Assembly (NCBI GenBank): GCA_000091165.1 | Contig: FP565575.1 | Span: forward strand, 30,001-62,000 | Direction of reading: 5' to 3' | Length of the DNA stretch: 32,000 nt | Source: Candidatus Methylomirabilis oxygeniifera | GTDB taxonomy: Bacteria; Methylomirabilota; Methylomirabilia; Methylomirabilales; Methylomirabilaceae | Part shown: in pieces, positions 10,441-31,199 of the stretch | Layout of the letters: every line of letters starts with the position of its first letter | How positions within the stretch are numbered: position 1 is the first letter of the stretch | Notes under the pieces: generated by a model | Databases searched by the model: none | The model's input: the letters and a program-made list of their open reading frames with translations, nothing else | Told to the model about the DNA's origin: nothing | Made by a program: the position numbers and the translations under genes

Positions 10441-10875
10441 TTGCAAGCACTCGGGAAACACCTGTTAGTGGAACTACACGGTTGTAACCCGGAGCTGCTG
10501 AAAAAAGCCGAAGTAGTCAGGGACATCCTGGTGTGCGCGGCTAACGCATGTAAAGCCACCATTGTTGACACCTCCTTCCACGAGTTCAATCCATTCGGTG
10601 TGAGCGGCGTGGTTGTGATTGCCGAATCTCATATCTCGATTCACACCTGGCCGGAATATCGATACGCAGCGGTTGACATCTTCACGTGTGGAGATGTGCT
10701 CAGACCGGAGGTGGCTGTCGACTATATTGCTGCCCGCTTTCGGTGTAAAAAACCGTCGGTGGTTGAGATGCGGCGCGGTATCATTCCCGGACACGTCGGA
10801 AAGCTGGTGCATAAATTGAGCCCATCCATGGAGAAAGCTGTCGATGCCGATCAAGAACTTTCGCTGGTTCATTGA
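10441..10875 (+). CDS. speH: S-adenosylmethionine decarboxylase proenzyme (pyruvoyl-dependent, SpeH/SpeD class 1)
   Basis: TTG start is the only start in the open frame, with RBS AAGGGGGG. Contains LGKHLLVELHGC and the self-cleavage motif AESHISIHTWPE. Confidence 0.9.
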   Translation: MQALGKHLLVELHGCNPELLKKAEVVRDILVCAANACKATIVDTSFHEFNPFGVSGVVVIAESHISIHTWPEYRYAAVDIFTCGDVLRPEVAVDYIAARFRCKKPSVVEMRRGIIPGHVGKLVHKLSPSMEKAVDADQELSLVH

Positions 10876-11761
10876 AGCGCTGAGCCCGGAGGAAGGACAC
10901 CTGCACGGGATTCAGCGAGCCCTGTTCTCCGCCCAGACCCCCTATCAGTCTCTCGACATCATGGAACTGGGCAGCTACGGGAAAGCCCTTGTCCTCGACG
11001 GCAAGATCCAGTCGAGTCTTCTCGATGAGTTCATCTACCACGAGGCGTTAGTCCATCCGGCGATGCTCAGTCATCCCGCCCCTAAAAACGTATTCATCGT
11101 GGGCGGCGGGGAAGGGGCGACGCTGCGGGAGGTGCTTCGGCACCCCACTGTAGAACGGGCTCTGATGGTCGATATCGATGAGGAGGTTGTCAGCCGATGT
11201 AAGGAGTTGCTGCCCGAGTGGCACAAGGGCGCCTTTGATGATCCGCGCACCGAACTCCGCTTCCTGGATGCCAGACGATACCTGGAGGAGACGGACGAGC
11301 GGTTCGACGTGATCATCATCGACATCTCTGAGCCGGTGGAAGAGGGCCCCGCATACCTCCTATTTACACGGGAGTTTTATCATATCGTAGATCGATGTCT
11401 GACGGACCAGGGGATTATCGCATTGCAGGCAGGCTCCGTCAGTCTCTCCCACCTGTCCTGTTTTTCCGCCATACACCAGACCTTACGGACCGTATTCCCC
11501 ATCGTCGCCCCCTATTGGGCGACGATCCCCAGCTTTGCCCTTCCCTGGGGATTCTCCGTAGCCTCCAAACGGCCTGACCCACGGGCGTTGGGACCGAATG
11601 CTATCGATCATCTCATCGCCGAACGGATAGGGACCGACCTACGGTATTACGACGGCCTGACGCATCAGATGTCCTTCCTCCTTCCAAAGCATGTACGCCG
11701 GCGCCTTGAAGAGGAGAAGCGGATCATCGAGGACAACTCCCCCCTCTTTACCTTCCACTAA
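10844..11761 (+). CDS. speE: Spermidine synthase (polyamine aminopropyltransferase)
   Basis: 305 aa. Contains YHEALVHPAM, VFIVGGGEGATLREVLRH, DIDEEVV and DVIIIDISEP. Overlaps speH by 32 nt. Confidence 0.92.
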   Translation: MPIKNFRWFIEALSPEEGHLHGIQRALFSAQTPYQSLDIMELGSYGKALVLDGKIQSSLLDEFIYHEALVHPAMLSHPAPKNVFIVGGGEGATLREVLRHPTVERALMVDIDEEVVSRCKELLPEWHKGAFDDPRTELRFLDARRYLEETDERFDVIIIDISEPVEEGPAYLLFTREFYHIVDRCLTDQGIIALQAGSVSLSHLSCFSAIHQTLRTVFPIVAPYWATIPSFALPWGFSVASKRPDPRALGPNAIDHLIAERIGTDLRYYDGLTHQMSFLLPKHVRRRLEEEKRIIEDNSPLFTFH

Positions 11762-11921
11762 AGGACAGGGTATAGGGTGCAGGGTATAGGGTTGAGGGGC
11801 AGCACTTTAGAGCTCGACACTGATTCGGAGTGCAATCCTTCTCGCGTACCCGAATACCCTTCACCCGCGTCCCAGGCCTTACTGCCCTATACCCTATACC
11901 CTCACCCCTACGCCCTGTCTT
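11762..11921. repeat. Inverted pair of GGGTRNA heptad arrays (locus 1)
   Basis: G-arm 11768-11799 is GGGTATAGGGTGCAGGGTATAGGGTTGAGGGG. C-arm 11885-11916 is CCCTATACCCTATACCCTCACCCCTACGCCCT. The reverse complement of the C-arm aligns with the G-arm at about 30 of 40 positions, including the flanks AAAGGACAGGG and AGAAAGACAGGG. About 85 nt separates the arms. Fills the whole speE-decarboxylase spacer. Confidence 0.9.
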
Positions 11922-11925
11922 TCTA

Positions 11926-13389
11926 ATGATTCCAGAACGACAGTACAGAACTCCCCTCTTCGATGCGATGGTCAACCTCGCGGAGAGTCGCAAGGTTTCT
12001 TTCCACACTCCAGGGCATAAGAGCGGCAAGGGTATCTCGACTCGCTTCCGAAAGTTCGTCGGTCCCAAGATCTTTACGATCGACTTGACAACGCTTGACG
12101 AGGTCGATTGCCTGCAGCGGCCGGTGGGGGTCATCAAGGAGGCCCAGGAACTGGCCGCCGAGGCGTACGGGGCCGACCATTCCTTCTTTCTGATCAACGG
12201 AACCACCGGCGGCAATCATGCGATGATCGTGTCGACCGCCAGCCCTGGAGACGAGATCCTGATCGCGAGGAATGCGCATAAATCGATTCTGACCGGGATC
12301 ATCCTGAGCGGCGCGACACCGCGGTTCTTCCTGCCGGCCTTCGACCGGGAGTTAGGCATGCTGTTAAACGTGACGGTCGAAGAGGTCGGACGCACCATGG
12401 CGCAGTATCCGAAGGCCAAGATCCTGTCCCTGACCAGCCCCAATTACTACGGCGTGACAGCCGACCTGCGCGCGATCGTTTCCATGGCGAAGCGTCGAGG
12501 GATCCTGGTGCTGGTAGATGAGGCCCACGGTCCCCATCTCCATTTTCACCAGGCGCTGCCCACGTCGGCGCTCGATGCCGGAGCCGATCTGTGTGTTCAG
12601 TCCACCCATAAGATCCTGGGAGGGATGACTCAATCCTCCATGCTGCATCTGAAGGGTTCGGATATCGATCACTCCAGAGTTGTAAAGCTGCTGCTGCTCC
12701 TGCAAAGCACCAGCCCTTCGTATATTCTGATGGCGTCGTTGGATCTGGCTAGAATGCAGATGGCGACCGAAGGGGAGAAACTCTTAGGCAAAGCCATCGA
12801 TCTGGCGAGAGACGCGCGAGATCGCATCAATCGGATTCCCGGTCTATCCTGCTTCGGTGAGCCCGATCTGCGCGGTCGTGATTTCTTCCTGGATGTGACG
12901 AAACTCACCATTTGCGTGAAGGAGCTTGGTCGCAGCGGCTTTGAGGTCTCCGCCACCCTGAACGCCGAGTTCGGTATTCAGGTGGAGATGGCCGATCTGT
13001 TCAATATTCTGGTGATCGTCAGTATCGGAGACAGAAGGGACGACCTAGATCGACTGGTCGCGGCACTGGGTATCGTGGCCGGGCGCGGTACCCGGCCTCA
13101 AGACCCGCGAGCCATCCCGTTCCTGCTTCCGCCCCTGGGTCAGCAGTGCCATCTGCCGCCACGGGATGCCTTCTTCGCCCCTTCAGAGTATCTGCCGCTT
13201 GCGAAAGCGGAGGGGCGTATCAGTGCCGATATTATCACCATTTACCCGCCTGGAGTGCCCGTCCTTGTGCCCGGCGAAGAGGTCGGGTCTTCGGCGATCG
13301 ACTACCTGCGCTCACTCGCTTCTTATGGCGCAAGAATTGACGGGGTCCTGGAGTTGGATGAGCCGCAGATTCGCGTTCTGCGCGATTAA
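11926..13389 (+). CDS. Orn/Lys/Arg decarboxylase family protein (likely arginine decarboxylase of the polyamine pathway)
   Basis: MIPERQYRTPLFDAM...VSFHTPGHKSGKG, with the PLP-lysine motif QSTHKILGG. The track start 11830 would translate the repeat element, so I chose ATG 11926. No SD sequence is visible upstream of it. Confidence 0.88.
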   Translation: MIPERQYRTPLFDAMVNLAESRKVSFHTPGHKSGKGISTRFRKFVGPKIFTIDLTTLDEVDCLQRPVGVIKEAQELAAEAYGADHSFFLINGTTGGNHAMIVSTASPGDEILIARNAHKSILTGIILSGATPRFFLPAFDRELGMLLNVTVEEVGRTMAQYPKAKILSLTSPNYYGVTADLRAIVSMAKRRGILVLVDEAHGPHLHFHQALPTSALDAGADLCVQSTHKILGGMTQSSMLHLKGSDIDHSRVVKLLLLLQSTSPSYILMASLDLARMQMATEGEKLLGKAIDLARDARDRINRIPGLSCFGEPDLRGRDFFLDVTKLTICVKELGRSGFEVSATLNAEFGIQVEMADLFNILVIVSIGDRRDDLDRLVAALGIVAGRGTRPQDPRAIPFLLPPLGQQCHLPPRDAFFAPSEYLPLAKAEGRISADIITIYPPGVPVLVPGEEVGSSAIDYLRSLASYGARIDGVLELDEPQIRVLRD

Positions 13390-13536: not shown

Positions 13537-15093
13537 TTGGTGACGGTGATAGCCGGCTACTATCTGTTTCCCACGCTATCCGGCCGATCGTCACTCCCCT
13601 CGCTATTGCCGCCGTTACTACCGCGCGCTGAGCGACTCAATCTTGGACTCGACCTCCAAGGGGGGATGCACCTAGTTCTGGAGGTGGTTGCCGAGAAGGC
13701 CGTGGAAAATACTATTGATCGATTGATCGCCGAACTGCGTCGGGAAACCGACAAGGCAAATATCCTTGTTGAACAGATGACTCGCGAGGGGATCGACCGG
13801 ATCAGGATCAAGCTTCAGGCGACAGAAGGCCTGGAAGGCGTACGCCGTATCCTCAAAAACTACAGTAACCTGCAAGAGTCCGGCGGCTCCGGCCCGACAG
13901 AGCTGATTCTGAGTCTCGCTTCCGGTGAAATGAAGCGGATGCAGGAATCTGCTGTCCGGCAAAGTCTGGAAACCATCCGAAATCGTATTGATCAGTTCGG
14001 GGTGGCCGAACCTCACATTGTACAGGAAGGAGACCGGCGGATCGTGGTCCAGCTCCCCGGCATTAAGGAGCCGCAGCGGGCCATCAATCTGATCGGCAAG
14101 ACCGCCCTCCTGGAGTTTAAACTGGTGGCAGAAGATGCCAATCTTGCCGAAGCAGTGGCGGGAAGGATCTCGGAGAACGACCAGCTTCTCTATCTACGCA
14201 GTACGGACGAGCAGCAAAAGATGAACAAGGTTCCCATTGTTGTGCAGAAGCGGGCCGTTCTGACCGGTGATCTGCTCACCTCAGCCCAGGTACAGATCGA
14301 CAGCCAAACCAACCAGCCGGTGGTCTCCATAGAGTTTGATCAAGAAGGTACGAGACTTTTCGGCGAGGCGACAGCAGCCAATGTGGGCCGACGTCTGGCC
14401 ATCGTCCTGGATGACACGATCTACTCGGCCCCGGTCATCCGGGAAAAAATTCCGGGCGGCAAAGCCCAGATATCCGGAAGCTTCACCATGGAGGATGCCA
14501 GGGATCTGGCGATCGTGTTACGGGCCGGCGCGCTTCCCGCGCCCGTCAACATCATTTCAAATCTAACGGTTGGCCCGTCGCTTGGTCTGGACTCTATTCA
14601 AAAAGGTGTACAGGCTGCTATTCTGGGCGGCGCTCTCGTTATTGCCTTTATGGCCATCTACTACAAGCTGTCCGGGGTGATCGCCAACCTTGCGCTGGTT
14701 TTGAACCTCATCTGGCTGGTGGGGGCGTTGGCTAGTCTCAGGGCTACGCTGACGTTACCCGGCATTGCCGGCATTATCCTCGGGATCGGGATGGCGGTAG
14801 ACTCGAATGTATTGATCTTGGAACGGATTCGCGAAGAGCTCCGATCGGGAAAGCCGGTCCGGTCGGCTATTGAGGGGGGCTACGATAAAGCATTCCTCAC
14901 GATTATCGACTCCCACGTCACGACGCTGATTACCGCGTGTGCGTTGTTTTTATTCGGGACAGGACCGGTGAAAGGGTTTGCGGTCACACTGAGCCTGGGG
15001 GTGATCTTCAACCTGGTGACGGCCTTGACGGGAACCAGGGTAGTGTACGATTGGATGACCCAACGATGGAACTTAAAAACACTCAGCATCTAA
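13537..15093 (+). CDS. secD: Protein translocase subunit SecD
   Basis: Contains LGLDLQGGMHLVLEV, a large periplasmic domain, and a C-terminal 5-TM bundle (GIAGIILGIGMAVDSNVLILERIREE). The track start is TTG 13537. The frame is open and SecD-like from 13501, and an ATG at 13499 is one base out of frame (see findings). Confidence 0.9.
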   Translation: MVTVIAGYYLFPTLSGRSSLPSLLPPLLPRAERLNLGLDLQGGMHLVLEVVAEKAVENTIDRLIAELRRETDKANILVEQMTREGIDRIRIKLQATEGLEGVRRILKNYSNLQESGGSGPTELILSLASGEMKRMQESAVRQSLETIRNRIDQFGVAEPHIVQEGDRRIVVQLPGIKEPQRAINLIGKTALLEFKLVAEDANLAEAVAGRISENDQLLYLRSTDEQQKMNKVPIVVQKRAVLTGDLLTSAQVQIDSQTNQPVVSIEFDQEGTRLFGEATAANVGRRLAIVLDDTIYSAPVIREKIPGGKAQISGSFTMEDARDLAIVLRAGALPAPVNIISNLTVGPSLGLDSIQKGVQAAILGGALVIAFMAIYYKLSGVIANLALVLNLIWLVGALASLRATLTLPGIAGIILGIGMAVDSNVLILERIREELRSGKPVRSAIEGGYDKAFLTIIDSHVTTLITACALFLFGTGPVKGFAVTLSLGVIFNLVTALTGTRVVYDWMTQRWNLKTLSI

Positions 15094-15094
15094 A

Positions 15095-15166
15095 GGATAG
15101 GGTGGAGGGAAAAGCAAGACCGGTGAGTTCTTAACCCTACACCCTATACGCTACACCCTACACCCT
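15095..15166. repeat. Heptad-array element (locus 2): short G-arm plus long C-arm inside the secD-secF spacer
   Basis: G-arm 15095-15109 is GGATAGGGTGGAGGG, starting directly after the secD TAA. C-arm 15135-15166 is CCCTACACCCTATACGCTACACCCTACACCCT, followed by GAGG and the secF GTG. Confidence 0.85.
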
Positions 15167-16192: not shown

Positions 16193-16333
16193 CTCTACCG
16201 AAGCCCGGATTGATTGATCCAGTCGTCAGTTTCAAGCGCCAGATTCCGCGTTGTGAGTACCGGGCCTGCGACTGGTGAAAGTGGCAATGAAGATCCGGAG
16301 CGGTTTTTCAGCCTGGAATCTGGAGCGCGGAAT

Positions 16334-16930
16334 ATGGAACCTGGAACCTCTCATTCGCATCGGGAGATGGCCGAGGCCATATTCCGTGAGAGCGCCGGGC
16401 TTCAGCTCGCCTTTCTGGAAGGCCACCTGGACTTGGTGGCCAGGGCTGCCACAGCCATCGCGGGAGCCCTGCGGGCCGGACGGAAGGTGTTGATCTTCGG
16501 CAATGGTGGGAGCGCGGCTGATGCCCAGCATTTTGCGGGCGAGTTGGTAAACCGATTCCTGCTGGACCGACCGGCGCTGCCCGCCGTCGCGCTGACCACC
16601 GACGGCTCGATTCTTACAAGTATCAGCAACGATCGGGGCTATGCTCAGATCTTTGCCCGTCAGGTTGAAGCGTTGGGTTCAGCCGGCGATGTGGCCATCG
16701 GGATCAGTACGAGCGGCCGGTCCCCCAGTGTCGTGGGTGGGATTGAAACGGCTGGCAAGTTGCAACTCTGCACCGTTGCGTTCACCGGTGGGGATGGGGG
16801 AAAGCTTGCCGGGTTGGCAGACTATGCATTCGTGGTTCCCTCTCGATCAACACCCAGGATTCAGGAGGTCCACGCAACGCTCGGTCATGCTCTCTGTCAA
16901 CTGGTTGAGGCTGAACTGTTCGGCGTGTAG
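16334..16930 (+). CDS. gmhA: D-sedoheptulose-7-phosphate isomerase (SIS domain)
   Basis: Contains VLIFGNGGSAADAQHFAGELVNRF, ISTSGRSPSV and EVHATLGHAL. I prefer ATG 16334 (GGAGCG RBS, 6-7 nt spacing) over the track start 16214, whose extra 40 residues look non-coding. Confidence 0.85.
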   Translation: MEPGTSHSHREMAEAIFRESAGLQLAFLEGHLDLVARAATAIAGALRAGRKVLIFGNGGSAADAQHFAGELVNRFLLDRPALPAVALTTDGSILTSISNDRGYAQIFARQVEALGSAGDVAIGISTSGRSPSVVGGIETAGKLQLCTVAFTGGDGGKLAGLADYAFVVPSRSTPRIQEVHATLGHALCQLVEAELFGV

Positions 16931-18012: not shown

Positions 18013-18053
18013 TACCGCCTTCTCGTTGTTTGTCTGCAACTCCTCTGATCTCA

Positions 18054-18176
18054 GGGTTTAGGGTATAGGGTGTAGGGTATAGGACAAAGCAACCCTAAAT
18101 ATCACTACTTCCTCAACCCTGGATCCTTAGCCCTCCATCGTGATCCCTACACCCTATACCCTACACCCGACACCCT
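18054..18176. repeat. Inverted pair of heptad arrays (locus 3)
   Basis: G-arm 18054-18083 is GGGTTTAGGGTATAGGGTGTAGGGTATAGG. C-arm 18145-18176 is CCCTACACCCTATACCCTACACCCGACACCCT. The spacer holds further CCC tracts, including CCCTAAA at 18093-18099. Confidence 0.9.
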
Positions 18177-18206
18177 GCGCCGATACGCTGAGGGGGGCAT
18201 TTGATA

Positions 18207-19346
18207 ATGACCAGTACCGACAGATGCCTTGCCGAGCAAGATGCCTGGCTGGCGCTCGCTCTGATTCCAGAGGTTGGCTCAGCGACGTTTTATCGCCTGA
18301 GGGAGGCGCTTGGTTCAGTGGAGGCCGTACTCAGAGCAAACAAAGAGGCGCTCGCGCAGGTTCCAGGTATCAGTCGACAGGTTGCGCAAGCCATTGCCTC
18401 CTTTCCGTGGCGGGATACCCTTGATCGGGAACTGCGAGTCATCGAGACGAGAGGTCTTGGTCTGAGACGGTTTGGTGAGGAGGGATATCCCGAGCTGCTG
18501 GCGGCCATCCATTCCCCCCCGCCGGTCCTCTATCTGCGAGGTACGATGAGATCGGAGGATCGGACGGCTGTGGCCATTGTCGGTTCCCGAACGGCGAGTC
18601 CGTATGGCGCCGAGATAGCTGAGCGGATCAGCGGGGAACTCGCGCAGCGCGGGGTGACAATTGTCAGCGGAATGGCCCGCGGGATTGATGCGGCAGCGCA
18701 TCGAGGGGCACTGCGAGTCGGCGGCCGGACCCTCGCCGTGCTGGGGTGCGGATTAGGGGTGACCTACCCCCCGGAGCACGCAGAGCTCGCCGACCAGATT
18801 GCGGTACAGGGCGCCGTGATCAGTGAGTTCTCAATCTTTACGCCGCCAAAGCCGAGCCACTTCCCGCGGCGTAACCGGATCATCAGCGGCCTGGCGCGCG
18901 GTGTCGTTGTGATTGAAGCCGGGCTTGACAGCGGGGCATTGATTACCGCAAATTACGCGCTTGAACAGGGACGCGACGTCTTCGCGGTTCCCGGGCAGGT
19001 AACATCGCGCCTCAGTCGCGGGTGCCACCAGCTTATCAAAGCAGGCGCGAAACTGACGGAGGGCTGGGAGGATATCTGGGAGGACGTTGAGCTACAGGTG
19101 GCTCCTAGCGCGCAGACCATGCTGGATCTGACCGCCGCGAGGAGTCCGCTTGAGCCGCAAGAGGTGCTGATTATCGATACCCTTGAGGCCGGACCGATGC
19201 AGATTGATGACCTGATCGCCCGGACTCAGCTTCCGGCAGGACAGATGGCCTCACTGCTGCTATCATTGATGCTCAAGGGCCTGATTGAGGAGCTACCCGG
19301 CAAAAGTTTTGCGAAACGAATTCGACCGACGAAAGGCAGGGTATAG
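18207..19346 (+). CDS. dprA: DNA-processing protein DprA (Smf)
   Basis: Contains SGMARGIDAAAHRGAL, FPRRNRIISGL, and a C-terminal winged-helix-like tail. ATG 18207 follows GAGGGGGG; the track uses TTG 18201. Confidence 0.9.
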   Translation: MTSTDRCLAEQDAWLALALIPEVGSATFYRLREALGSVEAVLRANKEALAQVPGISRQVAQAIASFPWRDTLDRELRVIETRGLGLRRFGEEGYPELLAAIHSPPPVLYLRGTMRSEDRTAVAIVGSRTASPYGAEIAERISGELAQRGVTIVSGMARGIDAAAHRGALRVGGRTLAVLGCGLGVTYPPEHAELADQIAVQGAVISEFSIFTPPKPSHFPRRNRIISGLARGVVVIEAGLDSGALITANYALEQGRDVFAVPGQVTSRLSRGCHQLIKAGAKLTEGWEDIWEDVELQVAPSAQTMLDLTAARSPLEPQEVLIIDTLEAGPMQIDDLIARTQLPAGQMASLLLSLMLKGLIEELPGKSFAKRIRPTKGRV

Positions 19347-19409
19347 GGTTGGGAGGGGCAAGGGGTTGTACTGGTAATCCTTTACCCCGAACTCTGGACC
19401 CTATACCCT
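19339..19409. repeat. Heptad-array element (locus 4) overlapping the dprA stop codon
   Basis: G-arm 19339-19366 is GGGTATAGGGTTGGGAGGGGCAAGGGGT; the dprA TAG at 19344-19346 lies inside the first heptad. The degenerate C-arm at 19384-19409 is TACCCCGAACTCTGGACCCTATACCCT. Confidence 0.8.
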
Positions 19410-25815: not shown

Positions 25816-25884
25816 ATTCCGATTAATCTTGCCACTGATTCCGATTTGAATATTGCCATCGATTCCGATCCAAAAATGCCACCC
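25816..25884. repeat. Three tandem iteron-like units ATTCCGAT-N6-8-TGCCA (22-24 bp period)
   Basis: Units start at 25816, 25838 and 25862: ATTCCGATTAATCTTGCCAC, ATTCCGATTTGAATATTGCCAT, ATTCCGATCCAAAAATGCCAC. They lie in the AT-richer non-coding stretch between the SEC-C gene and the IPTL-CTERM ORF. Confidence 0.7.
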
Positions 25885-26052: not shown

Positions 26053-26430
26053 GTGCTGGGATTGCATGTTCGGTGGCGACACCACCACCTATATACCACC
26101 TCCACCTCACACCATACGACCTACAGCACCGCCGAGGGCTGCGCGCCGCAGACCGAGGAGACCGTAACAACCACCGCGGCGTTCGGACCCGCGTGGATCT
26201 GCATCGGCGATGATGGAGGGGATAAGATCTACCCGAACTGCAGCCCGGGATTCCCCTTCGAGATCATAGCGGGCTCCGTCAATTACAACACGAATACGCA
26301 CACGGAGACGTATGTGTGCAGTGCCGATCCGGCCGCCATCCCCACCCTCTCCGAATGGGCGCAGCTCGACATGGCCGCCCTGCTGGTCGGCGGCGGCCTG
26401 CTGGCGATACGAAGACAGGCTAAAGGCTGA
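26053..26430 (+). CDS. Small Cys-containing protein with IPTL-CTERM-type C-terminal sorting signal (possibly 5'-defective)
   Basis: The C-terminus AIPTLSEWAQLDMAALLVGGGLLAIRRQAKG has an IPTLSEW motif, a hydrophobic helix and a basic cluster. No signal peptide follows the GTG 26053 start. Confidence 0.55.
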   Translation: MLGLHVRWRHHHLYTTSTSHHTTYSTAEGCAPQTEETVTTTAAFGPAWICIGDDGGDKIYPNCSPGFPFEIIAGSVNYNTNTHTETYVCSADPAAIPTLSEWAQLDMAALLVGGGLLAIRRQAKG

Positions 26431-26447
26431 AGACCGAAGTCACGTAC

Positions 26448-26516
26448 GTCGGGTTAGCGTCGCGTAACCCGACATTCGCCTTCGAGCCACCAGGTGACGG
26501 CCTGAACGGCCTCACC
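26448..26516. repeat. Two adjacent hairpins sharing an ACCCGAC core, in a convergent intergenic region
   Basis: The first is GTCGGGTTA-8 nt-TAACCCGAC (26448-26473). The second is GGTGACGGCC-TGAAC-GGCCTCACC (26493-26516), followed by CGACCTACG. They may act as bidirectional terminators or a REP-like element. Confidence 0.5.
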
Positions 26517-29009: not shown

Positions 29010-29015
29010 GAGCTA

Positions 29016-29057
29016 GGGTATAGGAGTTAGGGTGGAGGGTATAGGGGGTAGGGTGCA
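29016..29057. repeat. Heptad-array element (locus 5), single G-arm between xerC and hslV
   Basis: GGGTATAGGAGTTAGGGTGGAGGGTATAGGGGGTAGGGTGCA. No C-arm partner was found. It contains the probable hslV GTG (29053) and SD-like GGAGGG and AGGGGG. Confidence 0.85.
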
Positions 29058-29586
29058 AAGAGTTCGGAGTACAACGATCCTGGCAGTGCGGCATAAGGGG
29101 AAAGTGGTGGTGGCCGGGGACGGACAGGTCTCCTTTGGCGAGACCGTGATGAAGCAGACTGCCCGCAAGGTCCGTCGGCTGTGGAACGATCGGGTGATCG
29201 CCGGTTTTGCCGGCGCTGCGGCCGATGCGTTTGCCCTCCAATCGAGGTTTGAGGCGAAACTCGAGGCGTTCAGCGGCAACCTACCGCGCGCTGCGGTTGA
29301 GTTGGCGAAGGATTGGCGCACCGACCGGGCCCTCCGCCGATTAGAGGCGTTGTTGGTGGCGGTCGACAGGGAGCATTCGCTGGTCATTTCGGGGACGGGG
29401 GACGTGATCGAGCCAGACGACGGGGTGGTCGGCATCGGCTCCGGTGGGCAGTACGCGGTTGCCGCAGCTCGAGCCCTTATCGGCTTCTCAGAGCTTGATG
29501 CGAGAAGGATTGCCGAGGAGGCGATGAAGATCGCCGCCTCTATCTGCGTCTATACGAACGATACGATTACGATTGAAGAGCTATAA
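29053..29586 (+). CDS. hslV: ATP-dependent protease subunit HslV
   Basis: [27 protein letters not shown] carries the catalytic Thr after a short propeptide. Also [10 protein letters not shown] and GSGGQYA. The start is GTG 29053 or GTG 29032; both lie inside the repeat. Confidence 0.9.
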
Positions 29587-29790: not shown

Positions 29791-31146
29791 ATGGAACAGT
29801 TGACACCGCGACAGATTGTGGCCGAGCTGGATAAATATATTATCGGTCAGAAGGAAGCAAAACGGGCCGTTGCGATTGCGCTGCGCAATCGGTGGCGGCG
29901 GCAGAAGCTTCCGGCGGAGCTGCGGGATGAGGTGGCGCCGAAGAACATTATTATGATCGGCCCGACAGGAGTGGGTAAGACCGAGATTGCCCGCCGTCTT
30001 GCCAAACTGGTTGATGCCCCGTTTATCAAGGTGGAGGCCAGCAAGTACACCGAAGTAGGCTACGTCGGACGCGACGTCGAATCGATGGTGCGGGATCTGA
30101 CCGAACTGGCGGTGGATATGGTGAAGGCGGAAAGAATCAAGGGGGTCCAGGAGCGGGCGAGGGAGCTGGCAGAAGAGCGGCTCCTGGATCTGCTGTTGCC
30201 CGTCAGCAGGATGCCGACAACCCCCGGCGTCGAGCAAACCTTGGACGCGAGCACAGTCACCTCGGCGGCAGAGACTCGCGAAAAACTCAGGAAGCGGCTG
30301 CACGAGGGGAAGCTGGACGACCGCACTGTAGAGTTAGAGGTCAAGGATCGCGCGATGCCGATGGTGGAGATTTTCAGCGGCGCCGGCATGGAGGGGATGG
30401 ACATCAATATGAAGGAGATGCTGGGGAGCCTGTTGCCCCAGCGGACCAAGCGACGCAAGGTCAAGATTCGGGAAGCCCAGCGGATTCTTGCCCAGGAAGA
30501 GGCCGATAAGCTGATCGATGTGGACGAGGTAAGGTCGGAAGCGGTTCGCCGCGTCGAGGACTCCGGAATCGTCTTCCTGGATGAGATCGATAAGATCGCC
30601 GGTCGCGATTCGGGTCACGGCCCGGATGTTTCGCGCCAGGGTGTGCAACGCGACCTTTTACCGATTGTCGAGGGGTGCACGGTCAACACCAAGTATGGCC
30701 TGGTACGGACCGATCACATCCTGTTTATTGCAGCCGGCGCGTTCCATGTCTCCAAACCGTCGGACCTGATTCCGGAGTTGCAGGGGCGCTTCCCGCTACG
30801 TGTAGAACTGGCCAGTCTTACACAAGATGACTTCGTCAGGATCCTTACAGAGCCGCAAAATGCCCTGATCAAGCAGTATACCGCGCTTCTGGAGACAGAG
30901 GAGGTCACGCTGGACTTTACCGAAGATGCCATTCAGGAGCTTGCGGCTACCGCATGCGCCGTCAATCAGGCGACTGAGAATATCGGTGCCCGCCGCTTGT
31001 ACACCATTCTGGAGCGGCTGCTGGATGAAATCTCGTTTGAGGCGCCTGCCATGCAAGGAGCCCAGGTGACGATCAATGCTGCGTATGTTCGTGAGCGGCT
31101 TCAGGAGATCGTCAAGAGCGAGGACCTGAGCCGTTATATTCTGTAA
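29791..31146 (+). CDS. hslU: ATP-dependent protease ATPase subunit HslU
   Basis: [20 protein letters not shown], with Walker [16 protein letters not shown] and Walker [14 protein letters not shown] 29791 follows GGTGAGG; the track start 29770 lies inside the hairpin. Confidence 0.95.
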
Positions 31147-31199
31147 GGCAGCGATCAGCAATCAGCTACCAGGTGAAATCGTTGCAACCAGTGGAGTGG

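Follow-up and report, generated by a model that had tools for sequence, protein, structure and literature searches.

Among described repeats, those closest to the elements analyzed here are the heptamer arrays with unit GGGAATC in Xanthomonas and GGGGA(C/T)T in Nostoc PCC 7120 (Rehm et al. 2015, PMC4692102). Such arrays are 89-93% intergenic, range from 2 to 26 units, most often four, form 70-75 convergent plus/minus pairs among ~185 sites and lie mostly between co-directional open reading frames (ORFs), adjoining stop and start codons. Related species keep the spacers, while array lengths and sequences differ. The repeats are transcribed, form G-quadruplex (G4) and i-motif structures in vitro with a preference for four units, show no association with mobile elements and have no known function; the same work cites the idea that heptamers match the active-site footprint of the polymerase. 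Here we analyze a 32,000-nucleotide stretch of the Candidatus Methylomirabilis oxygeniifera genome (assembly GCA_000091165.1, contig FP565575.1, positions 30,001 to 62,000), hereafter the window, in which five spacers carry heptanucleotide tandem arrays. We define as an element any such array, with G-arms made of GGGTNNN units (consensus GGGTRTA) and C-arms of the complementary array.

The elements in the window are probably slippage-prone heptad arrays of the simple-sequence repeat (SSR) kind, arranged in convergent pairs, and would constitute the NC10 version of the Xanthomonas/Nostoc/STRR class, REP-like at most. The arrays are hypervariable, sit in operon spacers and are predicted to fold back on themselves wherever the two arms correspond. 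An earlier note on this DNA, made from its letters alone, had not recognized them as a described repeat family, an impression that the same architecture in Xanthomonas and Nostoc overturns. Every testable defining feature of that class is present in the window elements: a tandem 7-nt unit with a G3-4 tract, a non-coding bias (at the scale of the window only), convergent G-first pairs at four of the five loci, placement beside gene stops and starts, and occurrence in the same spacers of related genomes with variable length and sequence. The differences lie in the unit (GGGTRTA instead of GGGAATC or GGGGAYT), in the host (NC10/Methylomirabilota), in the TAG or TGA carried by each window unit, with arrays that abut or supply gene stops, and in the standing of G4 formation, which was seen in vitro for the Xanthomonas and Nostoc repeats and is predicted here. 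Our literature search found no paper describing such elements in Methylomirabilis and no follow-up on the GGGAATC repeats, and GGGTTCA matched primers alone. The class, whose heptamer arrays pair convergently at operon junctions, is hereby extended to NC10, the phylum of nitrite-dependent methane oxidisers.

The STRR of cyanobacteria, reportedly first described by Mazel et al. in 1990, resemble the window elements in being intergenic heptanucleotide tandems able to form hairpins between co-transcribed genes, and share with the NC10 elements the coexistence of G4-capable and G4-incapable units (the NC10 case being a distant relative, L012, treated below). Unlike the window elements, they have defined units and belong to heterocystous cyanobacteria, and the elements described here are an analogue rather than strict STRR. 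For the 7-bp STRR hairpins that filamentous cyanobacteria carry between hupS and hupL, the suggested roles are transcript stability, translational coupling, or service as pause/termination sites (PMC2670836). A likeness to REP/BIME elements, proposed in the earlier note, holds for location and fold: the REP, BIME and REPIN elements of Enterobacteria and Pseudomonas are extragenic as well, often occupy operon spacers just past stop codons and form inverted pairs that yield long hairpins. It does not extend to the arms, which are tandem heptads and not REP palindromes. The REP unit, present in many copies per genome and able to stabilise upstream mRNA, is a conserved imperfect palindrome of ~20-40 nt mobilised by RAYT, whereas the window arms contain no internal palindrome and vary by whole units; no Y1 transposase (RAYT) was found among the 10 window ORFs scanned against Pfam. 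TAACTGA arrays of marine Beggiatoaceae, cyanobacteria and Bacteroidetes, also of unknown function (MacGregor 2015, PMC4679880), are likewise intergenic heptamer tandems of 2-6 or more copies near starts with a patchy distribution across phyla, but they are direct repeats (with one inverted case) of an AT-rich unit and lie just upstream of starts instead of spanning from stop to start. Finally, the G-quadruplex/hairpin/duplex switch motifs of E. coli (Kaplan et al. 2016, PMC5100583) also allow either a hairpin or a G4, but they are not heptad tandems.

Heptad arrays in operon spacers

A search of both strands of the whole window with the pattern GGGTNNNGGGTNNNGGG returned 10 matches, against 0.01 expected from dinucleotide-preserving shuffles, and a lag-autocorrelation scan over periods of 4-12 nt gave strong segments for period 7 alone among the short periods. 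With Tandem Repeats Finder, arrays of period 7 were detected at 11765-11792, 11885-11902, 15134-15166, 18053-18083, 18145-18176 and 29014-29055. The GGGTNNN array coordinates of the earlier note were borne out by reading all five loci, which hold nine arms of 2-5 units each. The number of G3 or C3 tracts per arm takes values such as 2, 3, 4, 5 and 5, with too few arms to define a mode; the assertion that each arm has at least four of them fails at the secD G-arm, which has two (GGGTGGAGGG), and at the C-arm at 19384-19409, which has three. The inverted pairing of G-arms with C-arms was confirmed at four loci:

11761-11798 and 11885-11922: inverted arms of the speE/decarboxylase element, 38 nt, 79% complementary
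15097-15114 and 15130-15147: inverted arms of the secD/secF element, 18 nt, 83% complementary
18052-18083 and 18146-18177: inverted arms of the carboxypeptidase/dprA element, 32 nt, 84% complementary, with a 24-nt core at 96%
19338-19349 and 19398-19409: inverted arms of the dprA/topA element, 12 nt, 100% complementary

Compensatory evolution between the arms of one locus was considered as the source of this complementarity and rejected, for in an all-by-all matrix each G-arm pairs equally well or better with the C-arms of other loci. Since G-arms pair no better with their own partner, complementarity stems from a common family consensus. The arms make up a single interchangeable family.

The flanking + strand ORFs were assigned by Pfam and comprise spermidine synthase (speE, 10844-11761), an Orn/Lys/Arg decarboxylase (11926-13389), SecD, SecF, a SIS-domain protein, D-Ala-D-Ala carboxypeptidase, DprA, topoisomerase I, HslV and, at the position of XerC, an integrase-family recombinase. 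The elements occupy the speE/decarboxylase, secD/secF, D-Ala-D-Ala carboxypeptidase/dprA, dprA/topA and xerC/hslV spacers, whose neighbours are all co-directional on the + strand. According to the public gene calls of the identical contig WBTX01000001.1 (GCA_009026205.1), shifted into window coordinates, ~9% of positions 1-21915 is intergenic, and all four paired elements fall inside that share, a bias that applies at window scale only; they take up 4 of the 6 co-directional spacers longer than 80 nt. The claim that all copies are intergenic is correct insofar as they lie in spacers between co-directional genes, but the dprA stop and the probable hslV start are located inside arrays. G-arms start 0-6 nt past the stop codon (41 nt at one locus) and C-arms end 3-30 nt ahead of the start codon. 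The individual arms, all written on the + strand, are as follows:

11761..11800, + strand: G-arm of the speE/decarboxylase element, AAGGACA followed by GGGTATA GGGTGCA GGGTATA GGGTTGA GGGG, beginning on the final base of the speE stop TAA (11759-11761)
11801..11884, + strand: centre of the speE/decarboxylase element, non-repetitive, top of the predicted hairpin, with no evident likeness to the centre of the L007 ortholog (by eye, unaligned)
11885..11922, + strand: C-arm of the speE/decarboxylase element, CCCTATA CCCTATA CCCTCAC CCCTACG CCCTGTCTTT, ending 3 nt ahead of the decarboxylase ATG (11926)
15093..15114, + strand: G-arm of the secD/secF element, AAGGATA GGGTGGA GGG, two G3 tracts, beginning on the secD stop TAA (15091-15093)
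15130..15166, + strand: C-arm of the secD/secF element, CCCTACA CCCTATA CGCTACA CCCTACA CCCT, ending 10 nt ahead of the secF GTG (15177)
18052..18083, + strand: G-arm of the carboxypeptidase/dprA element, CA GGGTTTA GGGTATA GGGTGTA GGGTATA GG
18145..18177, + strand: C-arm of the carboxypeptidase/dprA element, CCCTACA CCCTATA CCCTACA CCCGACA CCCTG
19337..19366, + strand: G-arm of the dprA/topA element, CA GGGTATA GGGTTGGGAGGGGCAAGGGG, whose first heptads contain the dprA stop TAG (19344-19346)
19384..19409, + strand: C-arm of the dprA/topA element, CCCCGAACTCTGGA CCCTATA CCCT, three C3 tracts, ending 28 nt ahead of the topA GTG (19438)
29013..29057, + strand: lone G-arm of the xerC/hslV spacer, CTA GGGTATA GGAGTTA GGGTGGA GGGTATA GGGGGTA GGGTGCA, 6 nt past the xerC stop and filling the spacer

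At speE/decarboxylase, as the earlier note had it, the element spans the full spacer and ATG 11926 has no Shine-Dalgarno sequence; the element begins on the final stop-codon base and stops 3 nt short of this start, which is set in a TAATG context. The "shared flank" TAAAGGAYAGGG described in the note is most naturally taken for a degenerate first heptad (TAAAGGA compared with TATAGGG).

Conservation and hypervariability in related genomes

The nearest named homologs of the window spermidine synthase belong to Candidatus Methylomirabilota/NC10. Orthologous spacers were compared in two other Methylomirabilis-like lineages (L007-L009, with speE 89% identical, and L010-L011, 88%; nucleotide identity overall ~81-82%) and in more distant NC10 genomes (L012, speE 75%; L014, 72%); Logan contigs L001-L006 have a speE spacer 100% identical to that of the window and are thus uninformative. 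The comparison of orthologous spacers revealed the elements in L007-L011 and in L096, with differing unit counts and sequences:

speE/decarboxylase spacer, window and Methylomirabilis-like lineages: 170 nt in the window as printed with its stop and start codons, 146 nt in L007-L009, a 22-nt mini-hairpin, CAGGGTATAGGATGTAACCCTG, in L010
speE/decarboxylase spacer, distant NC10: no element; stop and start overlap as TGATG in L014
secD/secF spacer: element in the window, L007-L009 and L010; another heptad pair in L012
carboxypeptidase/dprA spacer: element in the window; absent from L007-L009, L010 and distant NC10
dprA/topA spacer: G-arm supplies the dprA stop in the window, L007-L009 and L010; another heptad pair in L012

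Across Methylomirabilis lineages, therefore, the same spacers keep elements and it is the number and sequence of units that change fast. The largest NC10 copy seen is the dprA/topA element of L096, a metagenome-assembled genome of Ca. Methylomirabilis oxygeniifera, where positions 1402-1520 hold a 12-unit G-arm facing a 5-unit C-arm; clean units of this G-arm number 2 in the window and 12 in L096.

The scale of this variability is most apparent between L007 and L008, assembled independently and sharing 99.85% identity across 20.9 kb: 22 of their 31 internal differences fall within the 87-nt secD/secF element, so that 0.4% of the sequence accounts for ~70% of them. The unit number of the C-arm differs between them, with (CCCCAAC)5 in the former and 3 in the latter. 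In L007 (14286-14330) and L009 (14281-14325) a perfect (CCCCAAC)5-6 C-arm stands opposite a GGGTRTA G-arm, and the equivalent C-arm of L008 reads CCCCAAC CTCCAAC CTCCAAC. Judging from these sequences, one arm can homogenise independently and lose complementarity with its partner, and the concentration of differences in the element looks like the behaviour of slippage-prone simple-sequence repeats. Arrays this variable could serve as strain markers for Methylomirabilis populations.

Replacement of the unit goes further in the distant relative L012, which holds heptad pairs free of G3 tracts at two of the same spacers: (GGAAACT)9.9 with (TTCCAAT)3.7 as an inverted pair at secD/secF (L012:14252-14411, fold z -4.0) and (GCCATCA)4.6 with (GGCTGAA)5.3 at dprA/topA (L012:19887-19976, fold z -5.4). 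Hence, G4 potential is not the common denominator of the elements. The architecture survives full unit replacement, G4-incapable units included, and these spacers appear to conserve heptad periodicity together with fold-back pairing, shared properties of the class, and not the guanine tracts.

Two further, weak period-7 arrays of the window have units akin to those of L012. Positions 16312-16349 hold a CCTGGAA-like array (5.4 copies, 64% matches) that extends across the ATG called as the beginning of the SIS-domain gene (16335); its unit resembles the GGAAACT/CTGGAAA arrays of L012, and no inverted partner was seen. Directly 3' of the hslU stop (31144-31146), positions 31147-31170 read CAGCGAT CAGCAAT CAGCTAC (CAGCNAT x3), a unit like that of the (GCCATCA)n array of L012, with no inverted partner seen up to the next ORF at 31173.

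Origin of the elements

Several observations weigh against reading the elements as convergent pairs of slipping SSR arrays. Over the ~42 kb of genome covered, five of them lie within 17 kb and none in the adjacent 21 kb to the left of the window. At one locus, the xerC/hslV array at 29016-29057, the search for inverted arms gave no C-arm partner, and the hairpin is not always kept where both arms exist, since the secD/secF element folds weakly in the window (z -1.3 to -2.0) and its counterparts in L007-L009 pair through a GGG/CCC triplet ladder alone (z -0.6 to -1.8). Repeat mis-assembly could, in turn, inflate the apparent hypervariability between assemblies. Slippage says nothing of origins: the carboxypeptidase/dprA element appears, from its absence in the relatives, to be a gain in the lineage of the window, the speE/decarboxylase element occupies a site at which distant relatives have the overlapping TGATG, and an outer motif, AAAG(R)CAGGG...CCCTGYCTT, is common to several loci and lineages.

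These last three observations speak for a non-autonomous mobile element of the MITE/REPIN-like kind, which would have heptad arrays as terminal inverted repeats and its transposase elsewhere. Such an element could also account for the identical trinucleotides that flank the speE/decarboxylase copy, TAA...TAA in the window (11759-11761, 11924-11926) and TGA...TGA in L007 (10916-10918, 11057-11059) and L010 (10916-10918, 10951-10953), and IS21- and IS110-type transposases are encoded 6-10 kb to the left of the window. The flanking trinucleotides could have arisen by duplication of 3 bp or through separate insertions, or could be kept by selection favouring a UAAUG/UGAUG restart context, and no such duplication was seen at the other loci. 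Nor are there consistent target-site duplications in ~50 pairs, NC10 included, the flanks matching over 0-1 nt, which is the chance level. The centres of window loci and orthologs, printed side by side and compared by eye without alignment, show no evident similarity and look unrelated even between orthologous copies; arm length changes by whole heptads, as in SSRs; the arms are not REP-type palindromes; and no association with mobile elements was found for the heptamers of Xanthomonas and Nostoc (PMC4692102). A G-first polarity that recurs with many different units across phyla (see below) is, moreover, hard to fit to independent transposon families. Taken together, we regard a mobile origin as decidedly improbable.

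The transposase genes left of the window lie at L256:16797-20918 and comprise IS21-like (Mu-transposase C-terminal domain plus IstB) and IS110-family genes beside a copper-ATPase/CsoR-like cluster; no link to heptads was seen.

Predicted structure of the elements

Folded as RNA, the speE/decarboxylase spacer forms a single long predicted hairpin of -75.7 kcal/mol, with a z score of -6.0 relative to shuffles. The carboxypeptidase/dprA and dprA/topA elements reach z scores of -4.8 and -3.6, so that the hairpin reading of the earlier note is supported for three of the four pairs (z -3.6 to -6.0) and falters at secD/secF; the lone xerC/hslV arm gives z +0.6. Loops of the elements are 15-86 nt long. 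Rfam yielded no family at gathering score anywhere in the window.

Long GC-containing hairpins directly past stop codons invite interpretation as transcription terminators or attenuators, intrinsic or acting by roadblock, that punctuate gene clusters. A pause or termination role has been suggested for STRR hairpins (PMC2670836), and the L007 copy at speE/decarboxylase does end in CCCCTGTTTTTG, a short T run. Most copies, however, have no U tract, and neither terminator nor promoter consensus scans flagged anything at the elements; the terminator-pattern scan shows no enrichment in the window as a whole (12 found and 14.6 expected). Elements are also found inside obligate operon pairs (secD/secF) and before a decarboxylase without a Shine-Dalgarno sequence, where termination would be harmful, and a terminator function thus seems very improbable.

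A different reading takes the guanine tracts as the selected feature, with the (G3N4)n G-arm acting as a regulatory quadruplex, or its complement as an i-motif, in DNA or nascent RNA. The formal motif named in the earlier note is present in four of the five G-arms, where four or more G3 tracts are separated by 4-nt loops, and absent from the secD G-arm with its two tracts. G4Hunter scores on the G-arms are 1.06-1.74, heptamers of the related class adopt G4 and i-motif folds in vitro with four units preferred (PMC4692102), and the order of the arms would give the G-arm time to fold before the C-arm is transcribed. Absolute G4Hunter scores of at least 1.5 are nonetheless reached by many unrelated 25-nt segments of this ~60% GC sequence, which makes the score non-specific. 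When quadruplexes are allowed in the folding, the hairpin remains thermodynamically dominant at the paired loci, and among window loci the quadruplex is preferred solely by the lone xerC/hslV arm (-23.8 vs -14.5 kcal/mol); a partial quadruplex choice is made by the dprA/topA variant of L010. The view of G4 as the essence of the elements is weakened by the non-G3 pairs of L012, which show the same architecture in the same spacers with units incapable of G4. We consider selection for a quadruplex unlikely.

Polarity of heptad arrays across phyla

The G-arm always comes first in the window, as the earlier note pointed out, but this order is strand-symmetric, the reverse complement of G...C being again G...C. 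Hence, it describes a convergent as opposed to a divergent arrangement, and not an orientation to transcription. To what extent it is general can be gauged from a search for GGGTNNAGGGTNNAGGGTNNAGGG in a single genome of each GTDB species, which returned at least 120 loci (L016-L135). Among the matches listed, heptad loci occur in at least 14 bacterial phyla and with many loop sequences (GGGTTCA, GGGTCTA, GGGTCGA, GGGTGTA, GGGTACA, GGGTAGA, etc.), the hosts including Acidobacteriota, Planctomycetota, Cyanobacteriota, Verrucomicrobiota, Gemmatimonadota, Chloroflexota, Nitrospirota, Methylomirabilota, several Proteobacteria classes and Candidate Phyla Radiation lineages. Neighbours of opposite type no more than 150 nt apart are G-first in 30 cases and C-first in 1, and under a looser definition of pairs in 42 and 6, again among the matches listed. 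As the search pattern catches both arrangements equally, the G-first excess is not an effect of ascertainment. Lone arrays in these matches follow the same geometry, with sense-G arrays 0-30 nt past the upstream stop and sense-C arrays ~5-45 nt before the next start. In co-directional contexts the lone arrays listed divide into 24 sense-G and 16 sense-C, a difference that is not significant, so that the distance rule alone holds; the ORF caller used for these contexts is crude, and cases labelled intragenic are probably over-called. The positional rules seen in the window thus recur at no fewer than 120 genomic loci from many phyla.

A scan of metagenome contigs (CAGGGTNNAGGGTNNAGGGTNNAGGG, at least 120 loci, L136-L255) was discarded as a source of bacterial statistics. 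Its matches come mostly from short TTTAGGG-rich contigs of a few lake and marine samples, which look like eukaryotic DNA of plant/algal-type telomeric, subtelomeric or satellite nature, and those listed show no polarity (9 G-first, 10 C-first).

The polarity rule provides a concrete and testable lead on the function of the class. It could arise from selection at the RNA level, the elements working as a hairpin-versus-G4 switch at operon junctions. With the G-arm first, the RNA exposed past the stop codon would be G-rich and the C-rich arm would be paired as it emerges; the opposite order might expose C-rich, G-poor RNA, a possible Rho loading site within operons. A G-arm locked in a quadruplex would then leave the C-arm exposed, and Rho-dependent polarity or translational coupling could be tuned in this way. 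On balance, we find such a switch quite unlikely as the source of the rule.

Mechanism and possible function

If the elements are convergent pairs of SSR arrays, as we favour, their arrays would expand and contract by replication slippage of 7-nt units and would be tolerated solely where genes stay intact. Presumably co-transcribed with their operons, they would then fold back into an RNA hairpin that closes the spacer and reunites stop and start codons. Such a reunion may be of consequence at speE/decarboxylase, whose second gene lacks a Shine-Dalgarno sequence in every compared lineage and the ancestral junction would be the overlapping TGATG. Any function is probably REP-like, either as a barrier to 3' exonucleases that stabilises the transcript or as a processing mark. 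It may also be weak, given that the hairpin and the four-tract G4 motif each fall short at one or more loci. The capacity for G4 would be a side property of the GGGTRTA unit, and much of the persistence of the elements may be owed to near-neutral tolerance and not to a selected function.

Gene boundaries and annotation

The GGGTRTA unit has direct consequences for reading frames. Each TRTAGGG unit contains TAG, TTGAGGG contains TGA, and 7 is coprime with 3, so that any frame entering a G-arm is closed within three units. Because their units carry TAG or TGA and close all frames, the arrays are able to abut or supply stop codons, and the dprA stop codon is found inside the G-arm not only in the window but also in L007, L010 and L096. 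The C-arm, read in sense, contains neither stop nor start codons, and ORF listings consequently extend upstream through C-arms (11830..13389, 18140..18424). These extensions are not evidence of coding. In annotation, then, C-arms create spurious upstream extensions, arrays supply stops, and gene boundaries near them need care.

At xerC/hslV the lone array overlaps the probable start of hslV. The conserved TTILAV motif of HslV begins at 29071 and, reading the frame by eye, the sole in-frame starts upstream are GTG 29053 and GTG 29032; the protein probably carries a short propeptide, with the six codons VQRVRS from GTG 29053 preceding TTILAV. The start codon and a Shine-Dalgarno-like GGGGG are both located within the heptad array. 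A Shine-Dalgarno-like GGAGG/GGGGG in a G-arm beside a start, together with the strict 7-nt spacing of the conserved GGGT core, would fit arrays to which a protein or the ribosome binds, read with a 7-nt period by a post-transcriptional regulator or used as a standby site, and a hypothesis of this sort has a precedent in the TAACTGA repeats of Beggiatoaceae (PMC4679880). The unit sequence, however, differs between NC10 lineages at the same spacer, the two halves of an element are mutually complementary, unlike a single-strand motif, and no candidate binding protein has been identified. We deem binding-site arrays scarcely probable at all.

Other repeats in the window

A weak period-7 stretch, AGGCTAA AGGCTGA AGACCGA AGTCACG, lies at 26411-26444, at the 3' end of the ORF at 26053-26430; a short GC hairpin, GGGTTAGCGTCGCGTAACCC, comes next at ~26452-26471. 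Among the small, unassigned ORFs of the 23.2-26.5 kb region, positions 25816-25883 hold a 24-nt tandem repeat, ATTCCGATTnAATATTGCCAnnG, in ~3 copies with 76% matches.

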